Positions 2,229 to 32,000 of a stretch of DNA of 32,000 bases are shown one piece after another (within the stretch, counting starts at the first letter, position 1; every line of letters starts with the position of its first letter). Source of the stretch: a bacterium (GTDB taxonomy: Bacteria; UBP7; UBA6624; JBBIMK01); contig JBBIMK010000010.1 of the NCBI GenBank assembly GCA_037444445.1, forward strand, positions 30,911-62,910, written 5' to 3'. The translations under genes were made by a program, and so were the position numbers. The notes beneath the pieces are model-generated. The model was not told where the DNA came from. It saw only the letters and a program-made list of their open reading frames with translations, and did not search any database.

Positions 2229-5200
2229 TTAGACGGAATTTTCTCCGGGTTCCTCTATTGAAGAAAGAATCTTCTCATGCAGTGTTTTTAGGCGTTGGAG
2301 AAGTTCCGCAACAAGAGAATGCGGATGAGCCCGGTTCTTCAAGAGAGTTCGGAGTTCAAAAGATTCTCCCTCTGGTTTCACTTTCCATCTTTCCTCAATA
2401 GCCCGGGGGAGCCAATCTTTCCGGGAGGTAATGAAGACCACTTCACCAGTGGAAGGGTTCACTCGTATCATCTGAATGTCCAGGGCCTCTGCCAGGACCT
2501 TGATTAGCGCCACATCCAGAAGGGCTCTTACCGGCAGAGGGATTTCTCCCCGGGTGGCTAAAAGCTGGAGTTCCAATCGTTTTAACTCTTCTGGATTTTC
2601 CGCCTGCATCATCCACTCATAGTAATGGAGGCGTTCCCGGACATCGGGGATGAAATCTTCTGGAATATAGGATGCCACGGGAATAGAGAGGAGAGGCGGG
2701 GATTTTTCCTTGACGGGTTTTTTCATCAGACAGGAGAGAGAGCCAGCCAGGATTCGTGTGTAGAGGAAGAAACCCACCTGAGCGGCATAACCATGCTGGC
2801 GTTTCCCCAGGAGGGTTCCTGCACCTCGCACTTCCAGGTCACGGAGAGCCACTTTCAGCCCACTTCCGAGGTCGGTCCAGGTTCCGACAGTGGTGAGCCG
2901 TTCCCGGGCTTTAATTCCCGGAGGGCGGGTGGGGGAATAGAAGAAAAGGGCGTAGGCTTGCTTATCGCCTCTGCCTACTCTGCCCCGGAGTTGATGTAAA
3001 TCAGCCAGCCCGAACCGTTCCGATTCTTCCACAATCAAAGTATCTGCACCCGGCATATCAATACCATTTTCAATGATAGTGGTGCACACGAGGATCTGGG
3101 TATTTTTTCGGAGGAAATCCAGGAGAACTTTTTCCAGGCGTTTGGCGGGCATCTTTCCGTGCCCCATTCCCACCCGAGCGTCGGGGAACATTTCCTGAAT
3201 TTCAGCGGTGCGGTGCTGGATTTTCTCCACCCGGTTATACAGGTAAAACACCTGCCCTCCTCGGTCCAGTTCCCGATGCACAGCCTTCTTCACTCTCTCT
3301 TCCGAGTAAGGGCTTACTGTGGTGATGACAGGCATCCGCCCCAGCGGTGGCGTTCGCAAATAACTGATGCCTTTCATCTGAATTAAAGAAAGGTAAAGAG
3401 TGCGGGGGATGGGGGTAGCCGTTAAACTCAGGATGTCTACCTTTTGATGCAGAAATTTGTAGCGTTCTTTTTGCTCTACCCCGAACCTCTGTTCCTCATC
3501 AATAATCAGCAGGCCCAGATTTTTAAATCGCACATCTGGCTGAAGTAATCGGTGGGTGCCAATCACGATGTCTGTTTTTCCTTCCTGTACCCGGTGCAAG
3601 ATATGACGAATTTCCTCAGGAGTCTTAAACCGACTCAGGAGGGCAATCTCCAGGGGAAAATCCTTTAATCGGCGTTCAAAAGTGAGAAAATGTTGATACG
3701 CCAGGATGGTGGTGGGAGCCAGCACGGCAACCTGCTTACCATTGAGCACAGCATGAAAGGCGGCTCGGATGGCGACCTCCGTCTTGCCGAATCCTACATC
3801 CCCGCACAGGAGGCGGTCCATCACTCGCACCCCTTCCAAATCCCTGCGGATTTCCAGCAGTGCGGCAATCTGGTCTGGAGTCTCTGGATATTCAAAACTC
3901 TGTTCCAACTGCTCCTCCCACTCCGGGACGGGGTGATAAGGGAGACGTTCCACCGTCATCCTGTGTAAATACAGGTCATACAATTCCCGGGCATAGCGGG
4001 CCGTGGCGCGCTTTACCGTGGCTTTTTGCTGTGCCCATCGGCGGCTTCCCAGACGAGCCAGGATGGGTTCCTCGCCACTGACCCCGATATATGGATGCAC
4101 CTGCCCAATCTGCTCCACTGGAACGAACAATTTGTCTCCGTCCTGATACTCCAGGCAGAGATAATCCTTCTCTTCGGCTCCCATTTTTTTTCGCACCAGG
4201 CCCCGGTAAAGGCCGATGCCATGAGATTCGTGAACCACAGGACTTCCTTCCTTCAATTGCGTAAGAAGTGTCAAACCTTCCAGGGCTGGGAGGGAATATC
4301 CCCTGTGCTTTTGTATTTCCCTGCCAGAGAGGACAAGAAGAGAGGAGAGGGAGCAATAAAATCCGGAAGAGATTTCCCCGGGGTAATGCTGAATCCCTGC
4401 TTCCATCCATTCTTTTGGGGGTGAGAGTGGAGAGGAGGTGTAGACGATACACTGGATGGATTTCTGAGTGAGTTTACGGGTGAACTCGTGAAAAATGCCT
4501 TCTTGCGATAGAGAGAGGGTTATTTCCCGGACCCCCAGAGCCAGGTCGGAATCTTCCTCCAGGAATGTGGAGAAGGAAAGGCTTCCACGGTTAGTAAAGA
4601 AAACCCGGAGGTGCTCAGGGTTCATCCAGGTTTTTCCCTGTCCCATCTCCTCGCGAATTCGTTGATATTGTTGAAGGGTCCACTCTTCTTCAAAAATTCC
4701 CACCCGGATAGAGGGATTCAGCCAGTCTGGGATCCAGCATGGGGCTTCCACGCTTCCCTGTCGTAAATCAGGCAAGAAAATCTCTTTCAGTCGCCTTTTG
4801 CCCCTTGTCTCCTCCAGAATTTCTTCCACCTCATTTCCGATGAAGGAGAGGCGATAGCGCTCTCCAGTGAGTAAGTGAAGGAGCAGGGTGTCGCCCATCA
4901 CTTTGAATTCGCCTCTGTCTAAAGGCTCTTCGCCCGGGCCATATTGCATCTGCTGGAGAGAAAGCAAGAAATCTTCCCAGGATGGGATGGAATCCCCCAC
5001 ATGGATGTCAGTGCCATAAAGAGGGGGCTGTGGGATTCCAAGCCCGGTTCCAGTAGCCACCACGATCCCGGGCGAGGCTTTCTTTAGAGCCACCAGCGCC
5101 CGCATCCTGCCCTCCACCATCCGCAGGTGCCCCCGACGCTCCAGAAGCATCCCCCGGGCTACACCCGGGTGCATCGTCTCCAAATCTGCATAAAAGATTT

Positions 5201-9163: not shown

Positions 9164-9955
9164 TTATACCTGAACGGTGAGGGACTCCAGGGCAACCTCT
9201 GCTGCGCGCTTTCCGCTCAACAGCATGGCGCCGAATGTAGGACCCATTCTCGGTAGCCCGAAGGTTTCCGCCACGCTCATCCCCGTCGCAATCAAGCCCG
9301 GATAAACCTCTCCGGTGTGCTCCACCACCAGGTCTTCGCTGGCTTCCACCCACATTCCACCCAGGCCCTTAGTCTTTAGCAGTCCGTGCTGTTCCGCTTT
9401 TCGGATGACGGAGGCTTCATGACCCGTGGCGTCAATAATCATTCTGGATTCCAGTGCAATGGGGTCCACGCAGGTAATTTCACGGGGCAAGCCGCGGACG
9501 GGGGTCCAGTTCACGACGACGCCGGCGATGCGGCCATTGCGAACCACGATGTCCTCCGCCATCGTGAGTTGAATAAACTTCACTCCCGCCTCGCAGGCGG
9601 AGGCAATGAGTTTGGAGCAAGCATGGGGACCGTCTGCCACCAGGAGCCCTTTCTTATACTCTTGAAATGGGACGCCAATCTCGGTAAGAATTTCATCCGC
9701 CGGGGCGCGGAAGGTGACCTTATTCATAAAGTAGCCACCGATCCAGAACCCCCCGCCCAGATAGTTATTCCGCTCTAAAATCAGAGTGTTCAGCCCGGCT
9801 TTGGCCAGTTCACGACCCGCCATCAATCCCGATGGACCCGCACCCACCACTATCACATCCGAATCAATGGCTTGATTCAGAATTTTCGTAAATCCCTCCA
9901 GGATTGCCCGGGTCACATCTCGCTCCCCGATTTTTGCAAATTTGTCCATCTCCAA
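9164..9955 (-). CDS. thi4: Thiazole synthase, Thi4 family (ADP-thiazole synthase)
   Basis: The product has the FAD/NAD fold 'VIVVGAGPSGLMAGRELAKAG', then 'LERNNYLGGGFWIGG', 'VVVNWTPV...CVDP', 'IDATGHEA' and 'GLPRMGPTFGAMLLSG'. All of these are collinear with eukaryotic and archaeal THI4. Confidence 0.9.
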   Translation of the reverse strand: MEMDKFAKIGERDVTRAILEGFTKILNQAIDSDVIVVGAGPSGLMAGRELAKAGLNTLILERNNYLGGGFWIGGYFMNKVTFRAPADEILTEIGVPFQEYKKGLLVADGPHACSKLIASACEAGVKFIQLTMAEDIVVRNGRIAGVVVNWTPVRGLPREITCVDPIALESRMIIDATGHEASVIRKAEQHGLLKTKGLGGMWVEASEDLVVEHTGEVYPGLIATGMSVAETFGLPRMGPTFGAMLLSGKRAAEVALESLTVQV

Positions 9956-9964
9956 TATCCCTCC

Positions 9965-10582
9965 TTATGGATTTTCTTGCTGAAATTTCACTCCATCCGA
10001 TGTGGTGATGATGCCCTGATAGAGGAAAGAAACCTGGCGGATTGTAGATTGCTGGTCAAACTCGTTCAGTGCGGCGCAGGCATCGGCTGGCATCACCACC
10101 TGGAACCATCGCAGGGCGGAACTTCCCGCGGTGTGAAGAACGCAAATATTGGAAACTGTCCCGCAGAACACCAGATACTGAATGTTTTTCAATCGTAGAA
10201 GATGCTCCAGAGGAGTGCCATAGAAAGCGTCATATCGCAATTTTTTGACCGTGGGTTCATCCGGGCCTGGCTGGAGTTCCCGGATGATTTCCGCCCCCCA
10301 GGTTCCTGCTACAGCGTGAACGGGCCAGATTTTAAACTCCGGGTCGTCCTTCGCATGCCAGTCCTGGGTGAATACCACGGTAGCACCACCTCTTCTCGCT
10401 TTCTTTAGCAGTCTGACGATGGCGGGAATGGCAGATTTCGTGGAGGGAACATAAAGGCTCCCCTCCGGGTGGGCAAAATCGTTCTGCATATCCACCACAA
10501 TCAAGGCGGTTTCTTTCGCAGGGAGTTTCACCTCTTTCACACTTTTATATTCTGGAACGGTCAGGAGTTTTGGCTTGCTCAT
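9965..10582 (-). CDS. pncA: Nicotinamidase/pyrazinamidase (isochorismatase superfamily)
   Basis: It has '[11 protein letters not shown]' (catalytic Asp), 'TQDWHAKDD' and '[13 protein letters not shown]' (metal site), 'VKKLRYDAF' (Lys) and '[12 protein letters not shown]' (nucleophilic Cys). The start overlaps the thiC stop as ATGA (10579-10582). Confidence 0.8.
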
Positions 10583-11946
10583 AATTCCTCCATCCTGTGG
10601 GCTTGTGCGAGGAGGTGCTGTTTTTCTTCCGCGTCAGTCATTTTCCGAATATCCTGCGTCATTTTCATGGGGCAGAATTTGGGACCGCACATAGAGCAGA
10701 AGGGGGCGGTTTTGAAGTACTCATCCGCCAGCGTTTCGTCGTGATAAACCCGGGCTCGTTCCGGGTCAAGAGCCAGTCGGAACTGCTCCTCCCAGTCAAA
10801 TTGAAACCTGGCTTTTGATAGCAGGTCATCGCGGAATCGTGCTCCTTTTCTGCCCCGGGCGATGTCTGCTGCATGGGCTGCAATCTTGAATGCGATGATA
10901 CCCTGCCGAACATCCTCCACATTGGGTAACCCCAGGTGTTCTTTGGGGGTGATGTAGCAGAGAAGTGCAGCCCCCGCAGCCCCCGCCACAGTGGCCCCTA
11001 TGGCACCCGTAATATGGTCATATCCGGGCGCAATGTCCGTCACCAGAGGACCCAGAACATAAAACGGCGCCTCGTGGCACCACTCCATCTGTTTCTTTAC
11101 ATTCATCTCAATAAGATGGAAGGGGATATGCCCGGGTCCTTCAATCATCACCTGAACATCTTTCTCCCAGGCGCGAAGGGTCAATTCGCCCAGGGTCTTG
11201 AGTTCAGCGAATTGGGCAGAATCGTTGGCATCTGCGAGACAGCCGGGGCGAAGCCCATCGCCGGCGCTGATGGTCACATCGTGCCGTCGGCAGATGTCCA
11301 GAATCCGGTCAAAGTTCTCATACAACGGGTTCTGGCGATTGTGAATCATCATCCAGTGAGCGAGGATACCTCCACCCCGACTCACGATACCGGTGAGCCG
11401 ATGGGCAGTCAAAGGAATATATTCTTTCAGCACACCGATATGAAGAGTCATATAATCTACACCTTGCTGAGCCTGAAACTGTATGATGTCCAGAATTAAC
11501 TCCGGGGTAATTTTCTCCACACTCCCCGCTTCATAGAGGACCTGATAGATAGGAACGGTTCCCACGGGTAGAGGACTTTTTTTTACTACCATCTCCCGAA
11601 TCTCATTGATATTCTTCCCATCGGAAAGGTCCATCACGGTGTCAGAGCCATAATGAATCGCTATGTGAAGTTTTTCCAGCTCTTCCTCCAGGGAAGAAGT
11701 GGTGGGGGATGCACCGAAGTTGGTGTTGATTTTGCACCGGAAATTCATTCCGATGACCGTGGGTTCCAGGCGGGTGTGGTGGATATTGGCAGGGATGACC
11801 GCCCGCCCTCGCGCCACCTCGCTCCGGACAAGTTCTGGCTCCACTCCCTCCCGCTCGGCGCAGGACTTCATCGCCTGCGTGATGATGCCTTTCCGAGCAT
11901 AGTGCATCTGCGTTACACATCGCTCCTTCCCATTTATCAAACCCAT
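10579..11946 (-). CDS. thiC: Phosphomethylpyrimidine synthase ThiC (radical SAM)
   Basis: The 455-aa product has 'IPANIHH', 'VSRGG' and 'MIEGPGH', plus the C-terminal Fe-S motif '[12 protein letters not shown]'. The SD GGAGGGG lies ~9 nt upstream of the ATG. Confidence 0.97.
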
Positions 11947-12032
11947 ATCTGCTTTCCCCTCCTGAGGTAATATCCCTTCATCTCATTTCTTTTCTTTTTG
12001 GGGCATTCCGGGGAAGTGTGAGGAGAAACTCT

Positions 12033-12130
12033 GGCACCTTCCCTCCGCCGGTATTATCCGGATCAGGTTCCAGGGGTCATCCCACTCCAAACTGCGCAGG
12101 ACTTCTCAGCACTCAGGCTCCCCCGGTGCC
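12033..12130 (-). promoter_or_regulatory. TPP (THI-box) riboswitch in the thiC leader
   Basis: The minus strand reads GGCACCGGGGGAGCCUGAGUGCUGAGAAGUCCUGCGCAGUUUGGAGUGGGAUGACCCCUGGAACCUGAUCCGGAUAAUACCGGCGGAGGGAAGGUGCC. P1 is GGCACC/GGUGCC. The conserved CUGAGA, ACCC and ACCUGAUCCGGAUAAUACCGGCG..GGGAA elements are all present. Confidence 0.9.
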
Positions 12131-12137
12131 CACCTTA

Positions 12138-19267: not shown

Positions 19268-19328
19268 CTATAACGGTATTGATTTTCATCCTGTAGTATA
19301 ATTAGGAGACGGTGGTAGTGGAAGGATT

Positions 19329-19400
19329 GCCCTCGTCGTCTAACGGTCAGGACACCACTCTTTCAAGGTGGCAACGGGGGTTCGACTCCCCCCGAGGGCG
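19329..19400 (+). tRNA. tRNA-Glu (anticodon UUC)
   Basis: The cloverleaf folds by hand: acceptor GCCCTCG/CGAGGGC, D-arm GTCT..AGGA, anticodon stem CCACT/GGTGG with loop CTTTCAA (TTC), T-arm GGGGG-TTCGACT-CCCCC. The sequence is close to canonical bacterial tRNA-Glu. CCA is not encoded. A TATAAT lies at 19297-19302. Confidence 0.9.
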
Positions 19401-19440
19401 CTACGAGGTGAAAGGAAAAACAGGAAAGGGGGAAGAAGAA

Positions 19441-19761
19441 ATGGCAAGGGAGTTCAGGAGACAAATTTTTGTTTGCACGAAAGAAACTTTTGATGGATGC
19501 TGTGCCCAGAAGGGTGCTCTGGAGGTGTTCAAAGCCCTACGGGAAGCAGTCCGGCAGGCGGGCATCGCAGATGTGCTGGTCTCCGGGTGCGGATGCACGG
19601 GGCAGCATTCCACCGGACCCACCGTGATTGTTCACCCGGACGGCATCTGGTATCAGCAGGTGAAGCCTGAGGATGTGGATGAAATCGTTCGGGAACATCT
19701 TCAGGGCGGAAAGCCTGTAGAACGGCTGGTCAATCCCCAAATGAAAGTCATCCGGGAGTAG
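19441..19761 (+). CDS. Thioredoxin-like [2Fe-2S] ferredoxin
   Basis: I prefer the internal ATG at 19441, because the longer ORF-track version overlaps the tRNA. 'IFVCTKE..GCCAQKGA' and 'SGCGCTGQHSTGPTVIVHPDGIWYQQV..DVDEIVREHL..G..VERL' match the (2Fe-2S) ferredoxin-domain family. Confidence 0.75.
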   Translation: MAREFRRQIFVCTKETFDGCCAQKGALEVFKALREAVRQAGIADVLVSGCGCTGQHSTGPTVIVHPDGIWYQQVKPEDVDEIVREHLQGGKPVERLVNPQMKVIRE

Positions 19762-22912: not shown

Positions 22913-22966
22913 TCTGGAATGAATCAATCCAAAATTCTCAACAAATTCCAGGGGCTTGAATGCGGA

Positions 22967-22975
22967 TGTTATAAT
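22967..22975 (+). promoter_or_regulatory. Extended -10 element (TGtTATAAT) just upstream of the pilin-like gene
   Basis: A perfect TATAAT at 22970-22975 is preceded by TGt. It ends 10 nt before the ATG at 22986, which implies a very short or absent leader. Confidence 0.35.
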
Positions 22976-22985
22976 ACAGTGTGGG

Positions 22986-23831
22986 ATGAGGAAGTGGCTC
23001 ATAAAAGGTGGGAGTATAGGAGTCGTTATCGGGCTTCTACTGAGCGCCGTGTTCGCTGCCTACCTCATCTTCATCCGGATAAATCAGCCGGAACGATATG
23101 CAGGCGTCAGGGGGGACGCCTGGCGAGACCTGGATGTGAAGAAGGGCTTGAGGGTCATTTATGAAGCCCTCCGGGAATACTACCGGGAAAATGGGCAGTA
23201 CCCCATTTACATCTGGGGTGGAAGTTACCAGGCCTGGGAAGACGCCCTGACTACGGGAGCCTATAGCGAATTTGAGGACCCTCTGCTCAGCACGGGTGTC
23301 CTGACAAATTACCCGAAGAATCCTTACTTCCCGGAGGTTCGGGAAATCTGTGTTCAAACGGGTATGGACCCGCGTTTTGGGTGCCTTACTTCCCTGGGGA
23401 AATCCCGGACCGCGGGCGGGGAATATATGGGGAATATCCTCTCGGACAATCGCTTCCGTGCCCGAACTTCTCCACCGAAATCCGTAATAGAAAACCGCCC
23501 CGACTTATATTATGTTTACACAGGCGATACATCTTTTTGGACCGTTGACTGGCTCCCCGGCGAGTTCGGCTATCGTGCCCTGGACAGACAGCATTTTATC
23601 TTATTTGCTTATGGCAGTCGCCGGAACACTGGCCTGGACATTCTGAATCATGAAATGGGTGAAAAAGAAAGGCAGGGCGGGCTCTTGTCTCCCCCCAATG
23701 TTGCCTTCCTTTCCTCCCTTAAAGAAGGCGAGCCACTCCGATATGGAAATCCGGATGGGATTCCCGATGGGGTCATCCTCGTTTTTAACCAGGACGGACC
23801 CCTGATGGAATATTCCTATCCTCTGGAATAG
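22986..23831 (+). CDS. Bitopic membrane protein with a pseudopilin (GspG)-like ectodomain and no prepilin leader
   Basis: 'MRKWLIKGGSIGVVIGLLLSAVFAAYLIF' is a single TM helix. 'GLRVIYEALREYYRENGQYP', 'YPKNPYFPE', 'ILFAYGSRRNTGLD' and 'GNPDGIPDG' follow the order of pseudopilin hallmarks. The ORF track starts at the TTG at 22956, and the choice of start is uncertain. Confidence 0.55.
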   Translation: MRKWLIKGGSIGVVIGLLLSAVFAAYLIFIRINQPERYAGVRGDAWRDLDVKKGLRVIYEALREYYRENGQYPIYIWGGSYQAWEDALTTGAYSEFEDPLLSTGVLTNYPKNPYFPEVREICVQTGMDPRFGCLTSLGKSRTAGGEYMGNILSDNRFRARTSPPKSVIENRPDLYYVYTGDTSFWTVDWLPGEFGYRALDRQHFILFAYGSRRNTGLDILNHEMGEKERQGGLLSPPNVAFLSSLKEGEPLRYGNPDGIPDGVILVFNQDGPLMEYSYPLE

Positions 23832-26515: not shown

Positions 26516-26620
26516 TTATTTGAGTGAGGAGTCTCCCACTCCGAAAAATACTGATATTTATCATAGAATTTCTTTGTAAAATAGTGAAAATATAGGGTGG
26601 ATAGGGATGAAGAGGGAAGG

Positions 26621-27496
26621 ATGATGAAGGAGATTCGGATACACGGGCGTGGAGGGCAGGGGGTGGTAACCGCCGCAGAACTCCTCGTCATAGCCTATTT
26701 TGAGGAGGGGAAGCATGCCCTCGGTTTTCCTGCCTTCGGTGCGGAGCGGATGGGCGCTCCTGTGCAGGCTTTCGTCCGAATGGATGATAAGCCCATACGC
26801 CTCCGAAGCCAGGTGTATCACCCGGATGTGGTCATTGTTCAGGATGTTTCCCTGATACCCGCTGTGAATGTGCTGGACGGCGTGAGGGAAGATGGGATAG
26901 TGGTTTTGAACACGCGGAGGATAAAGGGATTGGATGCTTTTCCCTTGCCCGCTGGTATGGTGAACCTTTACGCTGTGCCAGCCACAGAGATGGCGCTGGA
27001 GATTCTGGGGCGAGCCACGCCGAATACGACTCTGCTTGCCGCCTACGCCGGGATTACGAGGGAAGTAAGCCTGCATTCGCTGGAGAAAGCTCTCGCTCAG
27101 CGATTTCACGGGAAGGCTCTGGAGTTGAATAAGCAGGCGGTGCAGAGGGCTTATGACCTCGTTCAGACCCTTTCTCCGGTGAGGCTGGAGGGAAAGGCAG
27201 AACAGGCGGTGGTGGAAGTGGTGAAGAAGAAAGTTGACTCGCCTATGCTGGGGCTGGCGGCTTATCCCGGCTCCAGCCTGGAGTATAAAACGGGGGGTTG
27301 GCGAACCTTCCGTCCTCATTTCCTTTCCCAGCACTGCAACGACTGTGGACTCTGCGTCATTTACTGTCCGGAAGGTGTGGTGACTCGCATAGGTGAGAAG
27401 CGATATGAAGCCGATTATGACTACTGCAAAGGATGTGGCATTTGTGCCGAGGTGTGCTCACCCGGGGATATCCAGATGGAGCAGGAGGAGGCATAA
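26621..27496 (+). CDS. 2-oxoacid:ferredoxin oxidoreductase gamma subunit fused to the delta (2x[4Fe-4S] ferredoxin) subunit
   Basis: I prefer the ATG at 26621, which follows GAGGGAAGG. The gamma part is 'IRIHGRGGQGVVTAAELLVIAYFEEGKHALGFPAFGAERMGAPV'. The delta part is 'CNDCGLCVIYCPEG' plus 'YCKGCGICAEVCSPG'. POR versus VOR specificity cannot be decided from the sequence. Confidence 0.85.
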   Translation: MMKEIRIHGRGGQGVVTAAELLVIAYFEEGKHALGFPAFGAERMGAPVQAFVRMDDKPIRLRSQVYHPDVVIVQDVSLIPAVNVLDGVREDGIVVLNTRRIKGLDAFPLPAGMVNLYAVPATEMALEILGRATPNTTLLAAYAGITREVSLHSLEKALAQRFHGKALELNKQAVQRAYDLVQTLSPVRLEGKAEQAVVEVVKKKVDSPMLGLAAYPGSSLEYKTGGWRTFRPHFLSQHCNDCGLCVIYCPEGVVTRIGEKRYEADYDYCKGCGICAEVCSPGDIQMEQEEA

Positions 27497-28668
27497 TGAA
27501 GCGGGTGCTGGAAGGGTCTCTGGCGGTGGCGGAAGCGGTAAAACTATGCCGTCCTCAGGTGGTTTCCGCTTACCCCATCACTCCGCAGACGCATATTGTG
27601 GAGCATCTGGCGAAGTTTGTGGCGGATGGAGAACTCTCTGCGGAAGTGGTGAATGTAGAGAGTGAACATTCGGCCGCATCGGTGGTGTTGGGGGCAACGG
27701 CATCGGGCGCCCGCTCCTACACAGCCACCTCCTCCCAGGGGCTGATTCTCATGGCTGAGGTGCTGTTCAATATCTCCGGGCTTCGCCTCCCGGTGGTTAT
27801 GGGCGTGGCGAATCGTGCCCTCTCGGCTCCCATCAGCATCTGGAACGACCAGCAGGACTCTATGAGCCTCCGGGATTCTGGCTGGTTTCAGGTGTATGCG
27901 GAGAACAATCAGTCTGCCCTGGACTGGCATATTGCAGGCTACCATCTGGCGGAACTCACTTCCCTCCCCATTATGATTTGCATGGATGGATATATACTCA
28001 CCCACGCCTACGAACCCGTAGACATCCCGGAGCAGGAGCAGGTGGATGCCTTCCTTCCATCTTACACGCCGAAGATTCGCCTGGACCCGGATTCTCCCAT
28101 CACTCTGGGCGTTTTAACAGAGCCCGACGCCTACATGGAAACACGCTTCACACTTCATCAGGCTTTGAAGACCGCTCTTGACCATGTGGAAGGGGTGGGA
28201 AAGAAATTTTCAAGGATTTTCGGTCGGGACAGCATCCAACTGGTGGAGGGATACCGTCTGGAAGATGCGGAGGTGGCTGTCGTAGCCACTGGTTCTGTTG
28301 TGGGCACAGTGAAGGAAGCGGTGGATGACCTGCGGAGCTCGGGCAGGCGCGTGGGAGCGCTGGGCCTTCGGGTTTTCCGCCCCTTCCCCCGGCACGCCGT
28401 CCGCTCCGTTCTGGCAAACATCCCCCATATTGCCGTGCTGGAGAAAGCCCTCTCTCCCGGGGGACCTGGCATTCTTTCCGCTGACATCAAAGATGCTCTC
28501 TACGGCGATACTCGCTGGCCCCATATCGCCAGATTCGTGGCAGGACTGGGTGGGAGAGACATCACTGTAGAGCAGGTGGAAGAGATGGTGCTGAAAACTC
28601 TAACAGGCAAGGTGGAAGAGCATTTTTTGGGGCTGAACACCTCCCTTCTGGAGCAAGGCGAAGGCTGA
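27496..28668 (+). CDS. porA: 2-oxoacid (pyruvate-type):ferredoxin oxidoreductase alpha subunit
   Basis: The ATG overlaps the upstream stop (TAATG). 'AVAEAVKLCRPQVVSAYPITPQTHIVE', 'ESEHSAASVVLGATASGARSYTATSSQGL' and 'WNDQQD' are typical alpha-subunit motifs. A VOR assignment cannot be excluded. Confidence 0.85.
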   Translation: MKRVLEGSLAVAEAVKLCRPQVVSAYPITPQTHIVEHLAKFVADGELSAEVVNVESEHSAASVVLGATASGARSYTATSSQGLILMAEVLFNISGLRLPVVMGVANRALSAPISIWNDQQDSMSLRDSGWFQVYAENNQSALDWHIAGYHLAELTSLPIMICMDGYILTHAYEPVDIPEQEQVDAFLPSYTPKIRLDPDSPITLGVLTEPDAYMETRFTLHQALKTALDHVEGVGKKFSRIFGRDSIQLVEGYRLEDAEVAVVATGSVVGTVKEAVDDLRSSGRRVGALGLRVFRPFPRHAVRSVLANIPHIAVLEKALSPGGPGILSADIKDALYGDTRWPHIARFVAGLGGRDITVEQVEEMVLKTLTGKVEEHFLGLNTSLLEQGEG

Positions 28669-28678
28669 GGGATGAAGG

Positions 28679-29572
28679 ATGAAAAGTGGAGATGAAATAA
28701 AGGGATATCCACTCGTGGCGGGGCATCGGGGTTGCCAGGGCTGCGGGCAAGCCTTAGCTGCCCGCATCGCCCTGAAAGCAGCGGGCAGAAAAGTTGTCCT
28801 CGTGAATGCCACCGGATGCCTGGAAGTCTTCACCACCGCTTATCCCTATTCCGCCTGGACCGTGCCGTGGATTCATTCTCTGTTTGAAAATACCGCCGCC
28901 GTGGCATCCGGTGTGGATGCCGCCTACCGCGCCATGGGCAAGGACAATGCCGTCATCATCGCTCAGGCTGGAGATGGTGGAACCGCAGACATCGGGATTC
29001 AAGCCATCTCCGGTATGTTTGAACGCAGGCATCCAATCCTCTTCATCTGCTACGACAATGAAGCCTATATGAACACGGGCATCCAGCGGAGCGGGCTCAC
29101 CCCTCTGTATGCCTACACCAGCACCACCCCCACCGGAAAGGCCTCCCTGGGGAATGTGTCCACCAAGAAGGATATGATTCAAATTGCATTAGCCCACGGA
29201 GTTCCCTATGTAGCCTCCGCTACCATCGCATACTATCGGGACCTGGAGAAGAAGGTTCAAAAAGCCGTGCGGGTGATGGGCCCGAGGTATCTGCATCTTC
29301 ATGCTCCCTGCCCTCTGGGCTGGGACTATGACCCGGCGCTGACAGTGAAGATTTCACGCCTCGCCGTTCAAACCGGCCTCTTCCCGCTGGTGGAGTATGA
29401 AAACGGTCAGCTGGTCTCTGTGCGGAAGATTTCCAAAAAACTCCCCGTGGAAGAGTATTTGAAACTTCAGGGGCGCTTTCACCACCTCTTTGATTCTGAA
29501 GAAGGGAAAAAAGCCATCGCCCGGATACAGGCCATTGCCGACGCCAACATCGCTCACTACCCCTTGATGTAA
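28679..29572 (+). CDS. porB: 2-oxoacid (pyruvate-type):ferredoxin oxidoreductase beta subunit (TPP-binding)
   Basis: 'GHRGCQGCG', 'ATGCLEV', the TPP motif 'GDGGTADIGIQAISG' and 'CYDNEAYMNTGIQRS'. Confidence 0.85.
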   Translation: MKSGDEIKGYPLVAGHRGCQGCGQALAARIALKAAGRKVVLVNATGCLEVFTTAYPYSAWTVPWIHSLFENTAAVASGVDAAYRAMGKDNAVIIAQAGDGGTADIGIQAISGMFERRHPILFICYDNEAYMNTGIQRSGLTPLYAYTSTTPTGKASLGNVSTKKDMIQIALAHGVPYVASATIAYYRDLEKKVQKAVRVMGPRYLHLHAPCPLGWDYDPALTVKISRLAVQTGLFPLVEYENGQLVSVRKISKKLPVEEYLKLQGRFHHLFDSEEGKKAIARIQAIADANIAHYPLM

Positions 29573-29913: not shown

Positions 29914-29951
29914 GGTTCAGGAAAATAATAACACCATTTGGTGCCTGAACC
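29914..29951 (-). terminator. Nested stem-loop downstream of the minus-strand operon (weak terminator candidate)
   Basis: An 8-bp outer stem GGTTCAGG/CCTGAACC encloses the inner hairpin CACC-AAAU-GGUG (minus-strand sense), which is followed by UUAUUAUUUU. It begins 9 nt after the stop codon of the 90-aa ORF. Confidence 0.3.
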
Positions 29952-29959
29952 CAAAAGGG

Positions 29960-30232
29960 TCACTCTATATAAGGCTGAAATGCAAAATAGCCCATCAGGA
30001 AGAAGAAAGTGGGAATGACCCCACCGTATAGCCAGCCGCGACGCCCGGAAATGAACCCAATCAAGAACGGCCCGCCAATGAAAGCAAACCTCTGGATAAC
30101 AGGCTCAACCCACGGCTGTTGCTCCGCACTCCAGATTAAGGACACGAGCCAGTGATAAAGCGGTGAGGTTTTCCCTCCCACGACCCAGAGTAAAACTCCC
30201 AGGCTTAATCCCACACGCTCTCGGCGTGTCAA
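29960..30232 (-). CDS. Small hypothetical membrane protein (90 aa, ~3 TM)
   Basis: The gene has a TTG start ~8 nt after GGGAGAG and lies 16 nt downstream of the preceding gene. The hydrophobic segments are 'VGLSLGVLLWVVGG', 'FAFIGGPFLIGFISG' and 'YGGVIPTFFFLMGYFAF'. Confidence 0.5.
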   Translation of the reverse strand: MTRRERVGLSLGVLLWVVGGKTSPLYHWLVSLIWSAEQQPWVEPVIQRFAFIGGPFLIGFISGRRGWLYGGVIPTFFFLMGYFAFQPYIE

Positions 30233-30248
30233 GATGCCTGCTCTCCCG

Positions 30249-31199
30249 TTAGTGAATCAGCACCAGCTTCTTAATGACTTGCTTGTTTCGGTCCAGCAAC
30301 TTTCCCTCTCGCTCCATGTTGAGGAACTTATCCACTTCCATCGCCCAATCAGGGTCCACTGGTTTTCCGCTCCGGTTATAGCAAAGGGGCACACCTCTAT
30401 GGAACCTCGTGGGAGTGTTACTCATCACTATACCCACATAGGTGAAGTCTCCCGGAGTCGGGTGCTCTCTGGAAACATCCTGAATGGGCTGGCCGGTATA
30501 AGGGTTCTTGAGTGGGAGGACAACTCCGGTTGCCTGCAGGTCGGTCCATGTTCGGGGAAGGTCAAATCCATAAGATGTCACACTCTGCATGAGGGACCCA
30601 ATATACTGGCAAATAGAAAAGAGTCTTTTATCTGCCCGGTCAGCGGAAGAGAGCAGGGCTCTTACCCGGTCCGCCGGGGAAGGTTGGCTCTCTCCCATAA
30701 AGGTGGAGGATGTCCAGAGCTGCTTTTCAGCTACCTTTTGGCTTATGCTGAATAGTGCTGCTTCTACCTCTCCAGGGGGCGAACCCTCCGCCGTGCGTTC
30801 CTGGAAGAAATAAAGACGCACTCCGCCGCCAACCATGGATTCAAAGAGCATATTGCCGAGAAAAGAGGGGTCTACTGAAGTATCTAAACGCACCTCACCC
30901 ACTTCCTCTCTGCTCAACACCTGCAACGGCCTGGAGGTGTAAGGGTTCACTAATTCATCCCGGTTTACCACCAGGTAAGGAGAATTCAGGAGTTCCTCCG
31001 CATCGGTGGGAAACCGCTTCTCTGCCCTCGCAAAAAGCTCCAGGGCGCTCATGATTGCAAACTGGTTCGCAAAATTCCTTTTGAACTTATATGACCTGGT
31101 AGAGTATTGAAAGCCTGCAAAGAGCCCTGAAACACCGAGGGCAAGCCCGACCCACCAGACTAAACCTCTGACCCTCCAATTTCCTGCCTTATATTCCAT
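30249..31199 (-). CDS. Bitopic membrane protein with two pseudopilin-like modules and no prepilin leader
   Basis: A strong SD AAGGAGGAGAAAGGAG precedes the ATG. The TM helix is 'GLVWWVGLALGVSGLFAGF'. 'FANQFAIMSALELFARAEKRFPTDAEELL' is followed by 'VNPYTSRPLQ'. The second module has 'LFSICQYIGSLMQSV' followed by 'LKNPYTGQPIQDV' and 'PGDFTYVG'. Confidence 0.55.
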   Translation of the reverse strand: MEYKAGNWRVRGLVWWVGLALGVSGLFAGFQYSTRSYKFKRNFANQFAIMSALELFARAEKRFPTDAEELLNSPYLVVNRDELVNPYTSRPLQVLSREEVGEVRLDTSVDPSFLGNMLFESMVGGGVRLYFFQERTAEGSPPGEVEAALFSISQKVAEKQLWTSSTFMGESQPSPADRVRALLSSADRADKRLFSICQYIGSLMQSVTSYGFDLPRTWTDLQATGVVLPLKNPYTGQPIQDVSREHPTPGDFTYVGIVMSNTPTRFHRGVPLCYNRSGKPVDPDWAMEVDKFLNMEREGKLLDRNKQVIKKLVLIH

Positions 31200-31226
31200 C
31201 TCCTTTCTCCTCCTTTTTTATTAACC

Positions 31227-32000
31227 TCATACGCATGGTTGACAGAGTATGCATGACCCCGGCTGTGTGCAATCAGTGACAAAGAAATTCGTCGTCCAAC
31301 CGGACTCCGTGCAATCGTTCCGGCTGCTACAGAGGCAATACCATGGACAATCGCTGCAGTCCTGTTCCCAGCACTCACAAACAGGGAATACAAGTTCAAG
31401 TTCACGCAAGGGACCAAGTTTCTCTGCGCAAATCTTTGTGTGCCCCTGAACAGGGCTGTATCTCACGTGCTCGATTATCTGCATACATGGCGGACACCAG
31501 AAAGCATAGCATGCACAGGGTACCTCAGACGGCGGGTCGATATATTCTCTTACCCATTTCACATAGTAGTAATCCAGGCATTTACAGACAGTTCCCGGAG
31601 CGTCACAGGGACAGGTTCCACCACCCCCCAAACAACATCCGCAAGGTTGCTGCTGCGTTGGATCAGGTTCTGGTGGCCAGTAACTTCTCTGGGCGTCCTC
31701 ACACGATACTGGGGCGTAGGCGGGTGCCAGAGAAGAAGGACTAAAGGTGCCAATTCCATTCCCCGCTCCAAACGGGGAAAACACGGGGAACCCGAATCCA
31801 TCCAGAACCCCGTTCTCCGTCCCAGAGGAGAGCGATTGCCCCATCCCGAAAGGTATACCCTTCATCAGCCGGTAAAGGGGGTTCTGCCAGCCGAAGAAGG
31901 CCTCTACTATATCTACCGGCAGGGGGAAACTCTGGTTGGAAGAACTGATAATGCTTCCGCACCTCCCGAGAGTTTCAGCAGAATTCTCCTCCGCGAGGGC
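31227..32000 (-). CDS. Cys-dense (CxC/CxxC) protein, C-terminal part; 5' end off-window
   Basis: The listed ORF starts at Met 31865, but I translated the frame upstream by hand and it stays open to nt 32000 (..ALAEENSAETLGRCGSIISSSNQSFPLPVDIVEAFFGWQNPLYRLMKG..). It has a G/F/S-rich linker and then 24 Cys in the last ~155 aa: CGCC, CPC, CKC, CAC, CPPC, CEC, CSDC, CLC, CILCQPC. I recognise no family. Confidence 0.6.
   Translation of the reverse strand, partial: ALAEENSAETLGRCGSIISSSNQSFPLPVDIVEAFFGWQNPLYRLMKGIPFGMGQSLSSGTENGVLDGFGFPVFSPFGAGNGIGTFSPSSLAPAYAPVSCEDAQRSYWPPEPDPTQQQPCGCCLGGGGTCPCDAPGTVCKCLDYYYVKWVREYIDPPSEVPCACYAFWCPPCMQIIEHVRYSPVQGHTKICAEKLGPLRELELVFPVCECWEQDCSDCPWYCLCSSRNDCTESGWTTNFFVTDCTQPGSCILCQPCV

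Follow-up and report, generated by a model that had tools for sequence, protein, structure and literature searches.

A compact three-gene operon lies on the minus strand at one end of the 32,000-nucleotide stretch analysed here (the window: positions 30,911 to 62,910 of contig JBBIMK010000010.1, GenBank assembly GCA_037444445.1, from a bacterium of the GTDB lineage UBP7). It encodes a cysteine-rich protein (gene 1), a membrane-anchored protein of two modules (gene 2, the middle protein) and a small membrane protein (gene 3), and sequence comparison indicates that this trio is a real, conserved and extremely rare operon. The reading favoured here, with a probability of roughly one in three (0.35), is that the trio forms an exported, disulfide-locked module of the cell envelope, situated outside the cytoplasm in the periplasm or at the cell surface. 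An envelope module is proposed because the gene order is conserved, signal peptides or membrane anchors are present, the middle protein contains an invariant cysteine pair and a sigma factor gene neighbours the operon in one relative. The features concerned are as follows.

31950 to 31967, minus strand: Shine–Dalgarno (SD)-like sequence GGGAGGTG and, 7 nt further on, an in-frame ATT, gene 1 (sequence reading)
31227 to 31865, minus strand: gene 1, Cys-rich protein, 212 residues from the ATG at 31865
31731 to 31844, minus strand: 38-residue N-terminal motif of gene 1, MGQ..GTENGVLDGFGFPxFSPFGAGxGIGT
31230 to 31703, minus strand: 24-Cys domain of the gene 1 product, 158 residues from the first domain Cys to the stop
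31464 to 31520, minus strand: hypervariable patch, Cys-rich loop between conserved cysteines (L002 comparison)
31215 to 31200, minus strand: SD sequence AAGGAGGAGAAAGGAG of gene 2, abutting its ATG (sequence reading)
30249 to 31199, minus strand: gene 2, middle protein, 316 residues, ATG start
31020 to 31070: second hypervariable patch, helix 45-60 of the middle protein (L002 comparison)
30247 to 30241, minus strand: SD sequence GGGAGAG of gene 3, 8 nt ahead of its TTG
29960 to 30232, minus strand: gene 3, small membrane protein, 90 residues, TTG start
29914 to 29965, minus strand: homology breakpoint (~29963), then a stem-loop and terminator-like hairpins

Direct examination of the coordinates bears out an earlier account of this DNA made from the letters alone (the sequence-only reading), in which the three genes were described as tightly packed: the gaps are 27 nt between genes 1 and 2 and 16 nt between genes 2 and 3. 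The SD sequences that had been assigned to genes 2 and 3 are likewise located at the expected positions. The stem-loop reported 3' of the last gene is present at 29952-29914 (GGGTTCAGG...CCTGAACC, with an inner T-tailed hairpin), and its stability is ordinary (folding energy z = -1.6).

Orthologous loci, all of them metagenomic, were found as L001 (13 kb), L002 (2 kb), L003 and L006 (11.5 kb, from seven samples); the first three were reached via the middle-protein family and L006 via the Cys-rich protein. The order Cys-rich gene, middle gene, small membrane gene recurs in L001 and L002, and the first two genes follow one another in L003 and L006, so that the synteny which the sequence-only reading had proposed to look for in relatives is indeed observed. 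The gene 1 orthologs are P0006 in L001 (54% identity), the L002 protein (85%), a fragment in L003 and P0008 in L006. Alignment with P0006 shows that 23 of the 24 cysteine columns are kept, the 24th being one residue off, at a non-Cys identity of 47%; 24/24 columns are kept in L002 and 12/12 in the L003 fragment. Relatives keep their cysteine columns at 33-54% identity. P0008 is a mini Cys-rich protein of 84 residues, and the gene that follows it in L006 encodes a distant homolog of the middle protein (hhalign probability 88%, E 2.7e-6). The same locus has an unknown 231-residue gene (683-1378) ahead of the mini Cys-rich gene and a partial second copy of it (38% over 47 residues) past the middle homolog, at 3070-3210. 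Just downstream of the operon in L001, two tandem repeats of ~45 codons (3482-3751, minus strand, MAK[H/Y]PVWSAVAGL.NLGNEERP.FP) look like a repetitive intergenic element.

The family to which the middle protein belongs has 4 members in 5.8 billion protein clusters, one of which (P0002, on a 62.9-kb NCBI contig) is identical to the window copy. An exhaustive HMMER search of 1.84 billion representatives for relatives of the Cys-rich protein returned only P0006, the fragment P0008 and P0001, a 238-residue, 28-Cys protein from a 10.6-kb contig of an NCBI assembly; a profile search made no additions to this result. The fourth HMMER match, P0007 (925 residues), was rejected as a tandem-repeat artefact. 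Overall, some five relatives were found among roughly 15 billion proteins, and scans of GTDB genomes, JGI metagenomes and IMG/VR with the middle-protein alignment gave no further loci.

Relative to L002, the Cys-rich gene has a ratio of non-synonymous to synonymous substitution (dN/dS) of 0.60 and the middle gene one of 0.50, values that indicate fast evolution of both, yet under purifying selection in the frames as read. The window and L002 are 97-100% identical in nucleotide sequence over most of the operon and diverge sharply in patches. In the patch at 31464-31520 the identity falls to 58%, with flanks at 97-100% (REYIDPPSEVPCACYAFWCPPCMQIIEH in the window, REVIEQSLAPCSCYNPFCVEPCLKPLLR in L002). 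In this Cys-rich patch synonymous and non-synonymous differences alike (pS and pN) are elevated, which points to imported divergent segments rather than to selection on point mutations alone. Mosaic patches are typical of exposed or interface surfaces, and those seen here fit exposed or interface loops. The Cys-rich loop patch and the patch over helix 45-60 of the middle protein may together form a co-varying interface.

The C-terminal domain of the gene 1 product contains 24 Cys in 158 residues (15%), counted from the first domain Cys to the stop. As background, Cys makes up 0.95% of 17 Pfam-supported proteins encoded in the window, and the binomial probability of finding at least 24 Cys in 158 residues is ~1e-21. 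The six CxC motifs (CGC, CPC, CKC, CAC, CEC and CLC) and four CxxC motifs (CPPC, CSDC, CILC and CQPC) listed in the sequence-only reading are confirmed by count, with CGCC as a possible fifth member of the second set. The domain also ends in a CxxCxxC motif and holds 18 aromatic residues (Tyr, Trp or Phe) and 18 Pro (counted, with the 24 Cys, over 159 residues); an internal repeat (CxCx4CxxC, twice) was not significant. The Cys-rich protein of the window, like P0006, P0001 and P0008, gave zero Pfam matches even at E<=10. More generally, no protein of the trio and none of the orthologs has an above-threshold match in Pfam, NCBIfam, PADLOC, PHROGs or PDB sequences, in agreement with the sequence-only reading, in which none of the three was recognised as a named family. 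As families without detectable relatives they fall formally, on sequence grounds, outside every known kind.

Established classes of Cys-rich protein were considered in turn. The domain has no CxxCH haem motif, as a multihaem cytochrome c would, and its sole CxxCxxC, at the C-terminus, is not followed by the trailing CP of the ferredoxin-type Fe-S motif CxxCxxCxxxCP. Bacterial metallothioneins were defined as small proteins (~50-80 residues) that match a family profile, are extremely rich in Cys and contain hardly any aromatic residues, if any at all. The clustered CxC and CxxC motifs of the Cys domain do resemble those of SmtA and BmtA; however, the domain is two to three times their size, contains many aromatic residues and has no profile match, and one ortholog has a signal peptide. 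The description 'metallothionein-like', taken in the family sense, is therefore not sustained. A disulfide-stabilised fold appears likelier than a metal–thiolate one because the domain is large, has 18 aromatic residues, 18 Pro and only 15% Cys, and shows no metallothionein, haem or ferredoxin motif.

The middle protein comprises an N-terminal hydrophobic anchor (residues 13-30) followed by two α/β modules (residues ~36-168 and 169-316). Its AlphaFold2 (AF2) model, built from four sequences (pLDDT 79, pTM 0.79), consists of an N-terminal membrane helix and then, twice, a long helix with a small sheet. When the two modules were aligned with each other the hhalign probability was 81% (E 1.2e-5), with RFPTDAEELL...VNPYTSRPLQ placed on DLPRTWTDLQ...KNPYTGQPIQ, and the two modules that had been noted by inspection are thus true internal repeats. 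Cys197, Cys273 and a C-terminal VLIH occur unchanged in all four aligned members of the family, which suggests that the two cysteines may form a structural disulfide in the ectodomain. By eye, Sec-type signal peptides are present in two orthologs, P0004 (MRNVDRKVYLVLALAVALAA, cut ahead of N) and the L006 homolog (MMKVFRAICIATLILAVAA, also cut ahead of N), and the remaining members of the family have an N-terminal membrane anchor. These cleavable-looking Sec signals imply that the bulk of the middle protein would be extracytoplasmic.

A pilin-like nature had been claimed for this protein, and some resemblance to the pseudopilin GspG is apparent: an N-terminal hydrophobic helix, an amphipathic helix and a small sheet, with short 'x-F/Y-P' and 'NPY' motifs. 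The first helix ends in 'xRFP', is followed by 'NPYT' and is set by hhalign on the matching GspG helix of E. coli. Although the expected helix lines up, this alignment is insignificant (probability 0.2%, E 0.34), and the GspG resemblance must also be set against the two tandem modules. The N-terminus (MEYKAGNWRVRGLVWWVGLALGVSGLFAGF) is devoid of a prepilin motif, that is, of a basic leader cut between G and F/M-x-x-x-E ahead of a hydrophobic helix, and no N_methyl, T2SSG or other Pfam match was obtained at E<=1. A Pfam 2C_adapt match (19 bits, 12 residues over 'NPYTG') lies below the cut-off and was rejected as a mere motif match. In Foldseek comparisons of the model with the PDB the best E was 0.93 and the TM-score at most 0.27, with no pilin among the 50 matches listed; matches in BFVD were noise (best E 0.15). 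Moreover, genes for pilus or secretion assembly (ATPase, platform protein, secretin, prepilin peptidase) are absent from the 32-kb window, L001 and L006. The pilin-like label is thus unsupported, and a pilus- or pseudopilus-like apparatus with the middle protein as a leaderless pilin-like subunit is very improbable. The middle protein had also been said to share its design with a protein encoded at 22986-23831, and sequence comparison gives no support for this, no homology being detectable between the two. The reading frame in question (22956-23831, plus strand) encodes an orphan product that begins with a membrane helix and matches nothing in Pfam or NCBIfam.

Gene 3 encodes 90 residues with three hydrophobic segments, whereas its orthologs in L001 and L002 have 131-132 residues and four such segments. 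Over the initial 297 nt of the gene the window and L002 share ~99% of their DNA sequence; they are unrelated from ~29963, a breakpoint that lies one codon ahead of the window stop and 40 codons short of the orthologous stop. The stem-loop sits in the unrelated sequence that replaces these last ~40 codons, and no remnant of the missing C-terminus was detected anywhere in the window. The alignment indicates that gene 3 is a 3'-truncated copy of a four-segment protein and has lost the predicted fourth helix; the breakpoint may reflect either a true rearrangement or a chimeric assembly. The '3-TM mini-protein' of the sequence-only reading is thus correct as a count of segments, but the protein counted is a truncated copy. 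A possible relationship exists with DUF3792 (TIGR04086), an uncharacterised family of ~115-residue four-helix membrane proteins, in that the full-length orthologs, with their 131-132 residues and four segments, align near end-to-end on the 115-position profile. The gene 3 product and its two orthologs score 15.1-19.2 bits against DUF3792 (Pfam cut-off 31.3) and 14-16.9 bits against TIGR04086 (NCBIfam cut-off 30), however, so that all scores are below cut-off, and the window copy has only three segments.

The start of gene 1 is less certain than those of its neighbours. Its frame is open to base 32000 (258 codons), with alternative starts at ATG 31865 (212 residues), ATG 31844 (205 residues) and ATT 31952 (241 residues). 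Neither ATG has a good SD sequence, unlike genes 2 and 3. The window contains GGGAGGTG at 31967-31960, followed after 7 nt by the in-frame ATT, and the L001 ortholog has the same GGGAGGTG and 7-nt spacing ahead of a GTG that opens a signal peptide. The corresponding stretches align at E 0.004, and the window version has Asp and Glu in the would-be hydrophobic (h) region; on this comparison translation may begin, non-canonically, at ATT 31952, or the ATT may be what is left of the ancestral start. Codon usage of 31866-32000 scores +0.17 per codon in frame, but the non-coding stretch past gene 3 is positive too, at +0.10. A start inside the window is favoured because P0001 begins exactly at the Met matching ATG 31844, and a start further upstream because the frame is open and the ATGs lack an SD sequence. 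Overall, initiation at one of the two ATGs is tentatively preferred, initiation at the ATT is nearly as plausible, and a start beyond the window edge appears less likely. Of the statement that gene 1 runs off the window, the open frame is confirmed, but an open frame is no proof of extension.

The stretch that had been read as a Gly/Phe/Ser-rich linker proved instead to be a conserved motif of 38 residues (MGQ...GTENGVLDGFGFPVFSPFGAGNGIGT), of which 29 (76%) are identical to the first 38 residues of P0001. A remote homology test detected no similarity between the remainder of P0001 and the Cys domain of the window. The motif may act in targeting or processing, as a tag common to both proteins, or may alternatively be a recombination module; scans for it in metagenome contigs (JGI) and viral contigs (IMG/VR) returned nothing. 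Precursors of ribosomally synthesised and post-translationally modified peptides (RiPPs) and double-glycine-leader bacteriocins pair a conserved leader with a variable core, next to genes for a maturase or a C39-peptidase transporter. The trio has the shared N-terminus but differs from them in that the 'core' would be a conserved 158-residue domain and no maturase or transporter is encoded in the window or L001. The Cys-rich product is missing from the protein collection that contains its neighbour P0002, and annotators or gene callers may have skipped it.

A possible regulatory link is seen in L001. An extracytoplasmic function (ECF) sigma factor gene (379-1092; TIGR02937, E 4e-13) lies 140 nt upstream of the operon on the same strand, and its product has a 47-residue C-terminal extension with six Cys (CPCFLC...CTTCKRMC); no anti-sigma factor is encoded adjacent to it. 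In the ECF44 group a CxC motif between sigma-2 and sigma-4.2 is reported for all members, and as essential in CorE and CorE2 (PMC4937300). The L001 operon resembles CorE systems in following a sigma factor with a six-Cys tail and no adjacent anti-sigma factor. It differs from them in that residues ~75 to 115 of the L001 sigma factor are devoid of Cys, and so of the CxC linker motif, and in that its tail spans 47 residues as opposed to 28-38; the trio genes are, furthermore, unrelated to known CorE regulons, and the sigma factor gene is not within the window.

Taking these observations together, the Cys-rich domain would be exported and would fold as a disulfide-locked module with 12 possible cystines; outside the cytoplasmic membrane, at its outer face, this module would dock on the middle protein, the small membrane protein being a third subunit, and expression would be driven by an envelope-, redox- or metal-responsive ECF sigma factor. 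Several observations weigh against this reading. Export of the Cys-rich protein is shown by sequence for one ortholog, P0006, whose Sec signal peptide (MINWKAWIMGIGVTLLAASISWA, cut ahead of QQ, by eye and hydropathy) begins at the GTG at L001 1208; P0008 has no signal peptide, and a hydropathy scan revealed no hydrophobic segment in the 257 visible residues of the window protein. The AF2 model of the Cys-rich protein, built from 3 sequences (pLDDT 37.5), is unusable as a structure of the Cys domain and does not discriminate between disulfide and metal roles. Evidence for an interaction within the trio consists solely of the conserved adjacency of the genes, and L001 is the sole relative with such a sigma factor, the matching region lying beyond the window. 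The proposal in the sequence-only reading of a lineage-specific surface or metal-handling apparatus thus survives in part: the system is undescribed, syntenic and probably belongs to the envelope, but its pilin-like and metallothionein-like attributes are not retained. None of the findings that the sequence-only reading had named as refuting was obtained.

The nearest functional analogy to such an envelope module, and it is offered as an analogy, may lie in the YTV-domain cell-wall proteins of Planctomycetales, in which the abundance of Cys has been proposed to control how rigid the wall is (PMC8567305, PMC10632474). In both cases the proteins are Cys-rich (the trio protein is also Pro-rich), lineage-restricted and, as predicted for the trio, located in the bacterial envelope, and a 'C-x-D-Y-x-Y-V' motif recurs in the Cys-rich family of the window and in P0001. 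The differences are that there is no Pfam match at E<=10, and hence none to YTV if that model is in the library copy used, and that the window protein is a single ~160-residue domain, not a series of repeats, with two dedicated partner genes. As to the signal peptide and planctomycete host expected of a YTV protein, the former was seen only in P0006, and the best match of the Mfd protein of the window is 47%, to a metagenome-assembled genome (MAG) of Planctomycetia (two matches).

An alternative account of the cysteines, already raised in the sequence-only reading, is that all 24 bind Cu, Zn or Cd in metal–thiolate clusters, as part of a metal-buffering or metal-sensing operon under a CorE-like sigma factor. 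In its favour are the dense CxC and CxxC motifs and the six-Cys tail of the L001 sigma factor, which resembles the metal-sensing cysteine-rich domain (CRD) of ECF44 (CorE/CorE2; PMC4937300). In addition, the host looks anaerobic (judging from a pyruvate:ferredoxin oxidoreductase operon and Thi4), so that periplasmic thiols might stay reduced, and a weak Metal_resist match lies near the L006 locus. The size and composition of the domain are unlike those of metallothioneins, however, no Pfam match exists at E<=10, the ECF44 linker motif is missing from the L001 sigma factor, and the invariant Cys pair in the ectodomain of the partner suggests that disulfides form in that compartment; a metal–thiolate operon is therefore considered unlikely, if worth keeping in view. 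A different possibility, judged no more probable, concerns the window copy itself. The operon appears altered at its two ends: gene 1 has no recognisable signal peptide, no SD sequence at its ATGs and a borrowed N-terminal motif, and gene 3 lacks its last helix. The window copy may consequently work differently or be decaying. Local degeneration, in which the start and signal peptide of gene 1 have disappeared and gene 3 has been cut short, is compatible with any function of the intact orthologs. It accords with the contrast between the gene 1 ATGs and the strong SD sequences of genes 2 and 3, with ATT in place of the L001 GTG and acidic residues in the would-be h-region, with the abrupt end of L002 homology 40 codons ahead of the orthologous gene 3 stop, and with the missing database entry for the Cys-rich product. 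On the other hand, all 24 Cys are kept, genes 1 and 2 are without internal stops or frameshifts, and dN/dS relative to L002 is below 1. Moreover, P0001 is annotated as starting with the same motif, a sign that it may be a functional alternative N-terminus.

The occurrence of one 38-residue N-terminus on two Cys-rich domains without detectable mutual similarity would also fit a polymorphic secreted toxin or bacteriocin-like system, in which a trafficking N-terminus is combined with swappable Cys-rich domains and the membrane proteins protect the producer. The patchy and very rare distribution, the mosaic hypervariable loop and the small multi-pass membrane protein encoded downstream are all consistent with this. 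No transporter, C39 peptidase, type VI or type VII secretion (T6SS/T7SS) or contact-dependent inhibition (CDI) genes are present in the window or in L001 and L006, however, and PADLOC and PHROG matches are lacking. Orthologs of the same Cys domain differ in their N-termini, and P0001 has no detectable middle homolog behind it, none of the four members of that family being on a 10.6-kb NCBI contig. A toxin is thus distinctly improbable. Also unlikely is a composite view of the trio as an extracytoplasmic system in which a 24-Cys redox or metal domain, a two-module receptor and a four-helix partner would operate with a Cys-tailed ECF sigma factor sensing the same signal, and in which the 38-residue N-terminus would stand in for the Sec signal peptide in this lineage, as a previously unknown tag for export or targeting.

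It is not in itself surprising to meet exported, Cys-rich orphan proteins among uncultured bacteria of deep-branching lineages. If the envelope-module reading is true, the trio would add three new families of envelope proteins, among them a cysteine-framework fold and a duplicated ectodomain that would both be new. Coming from a poorly sampled and probably anaerobic lineage, it could show how a surface is stabilised or its redox state tuned, and the 38-residue motif, found on Cys-rich domains that are otherwise unrelated, might represent a novel signal for targeting. For now the trio is a well-documented orphan operon with a predicted role only.

The rest of the window has the content of an ordinary bacterial chromosome, with genes for Mfd, ThiC, Thi4, Dxr, PurF, NusB and PspC/LiaF, and the three-gene pyruvate:ferredoxin oxidoreductase (POR) operon converges on the trio, ending at 29572. 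A thiamine pyrophosphate (TPP) riboswitch (66 bits; 12022-12134, minus strand) lies upstream of a cluster of thiC, an isochorismatase-family gene and thi4 (9164-11946). The tRNA-Glu(UUC) gene at 19329-19401 (plus strand) overlaps the 5' end of the reading frame 19312-19761, the Suc_Fer-like match of which starts only at residue 48, and the true start is probably past the tRNA. Similarly, the POR alpha reading frame (27433-28668) overlaps the end of the gamma/delta reading frame (26597-27496) by 64 nt (27433-27496), and an internal Met (MKRVLEG...) is the likelier start of POR alpha.

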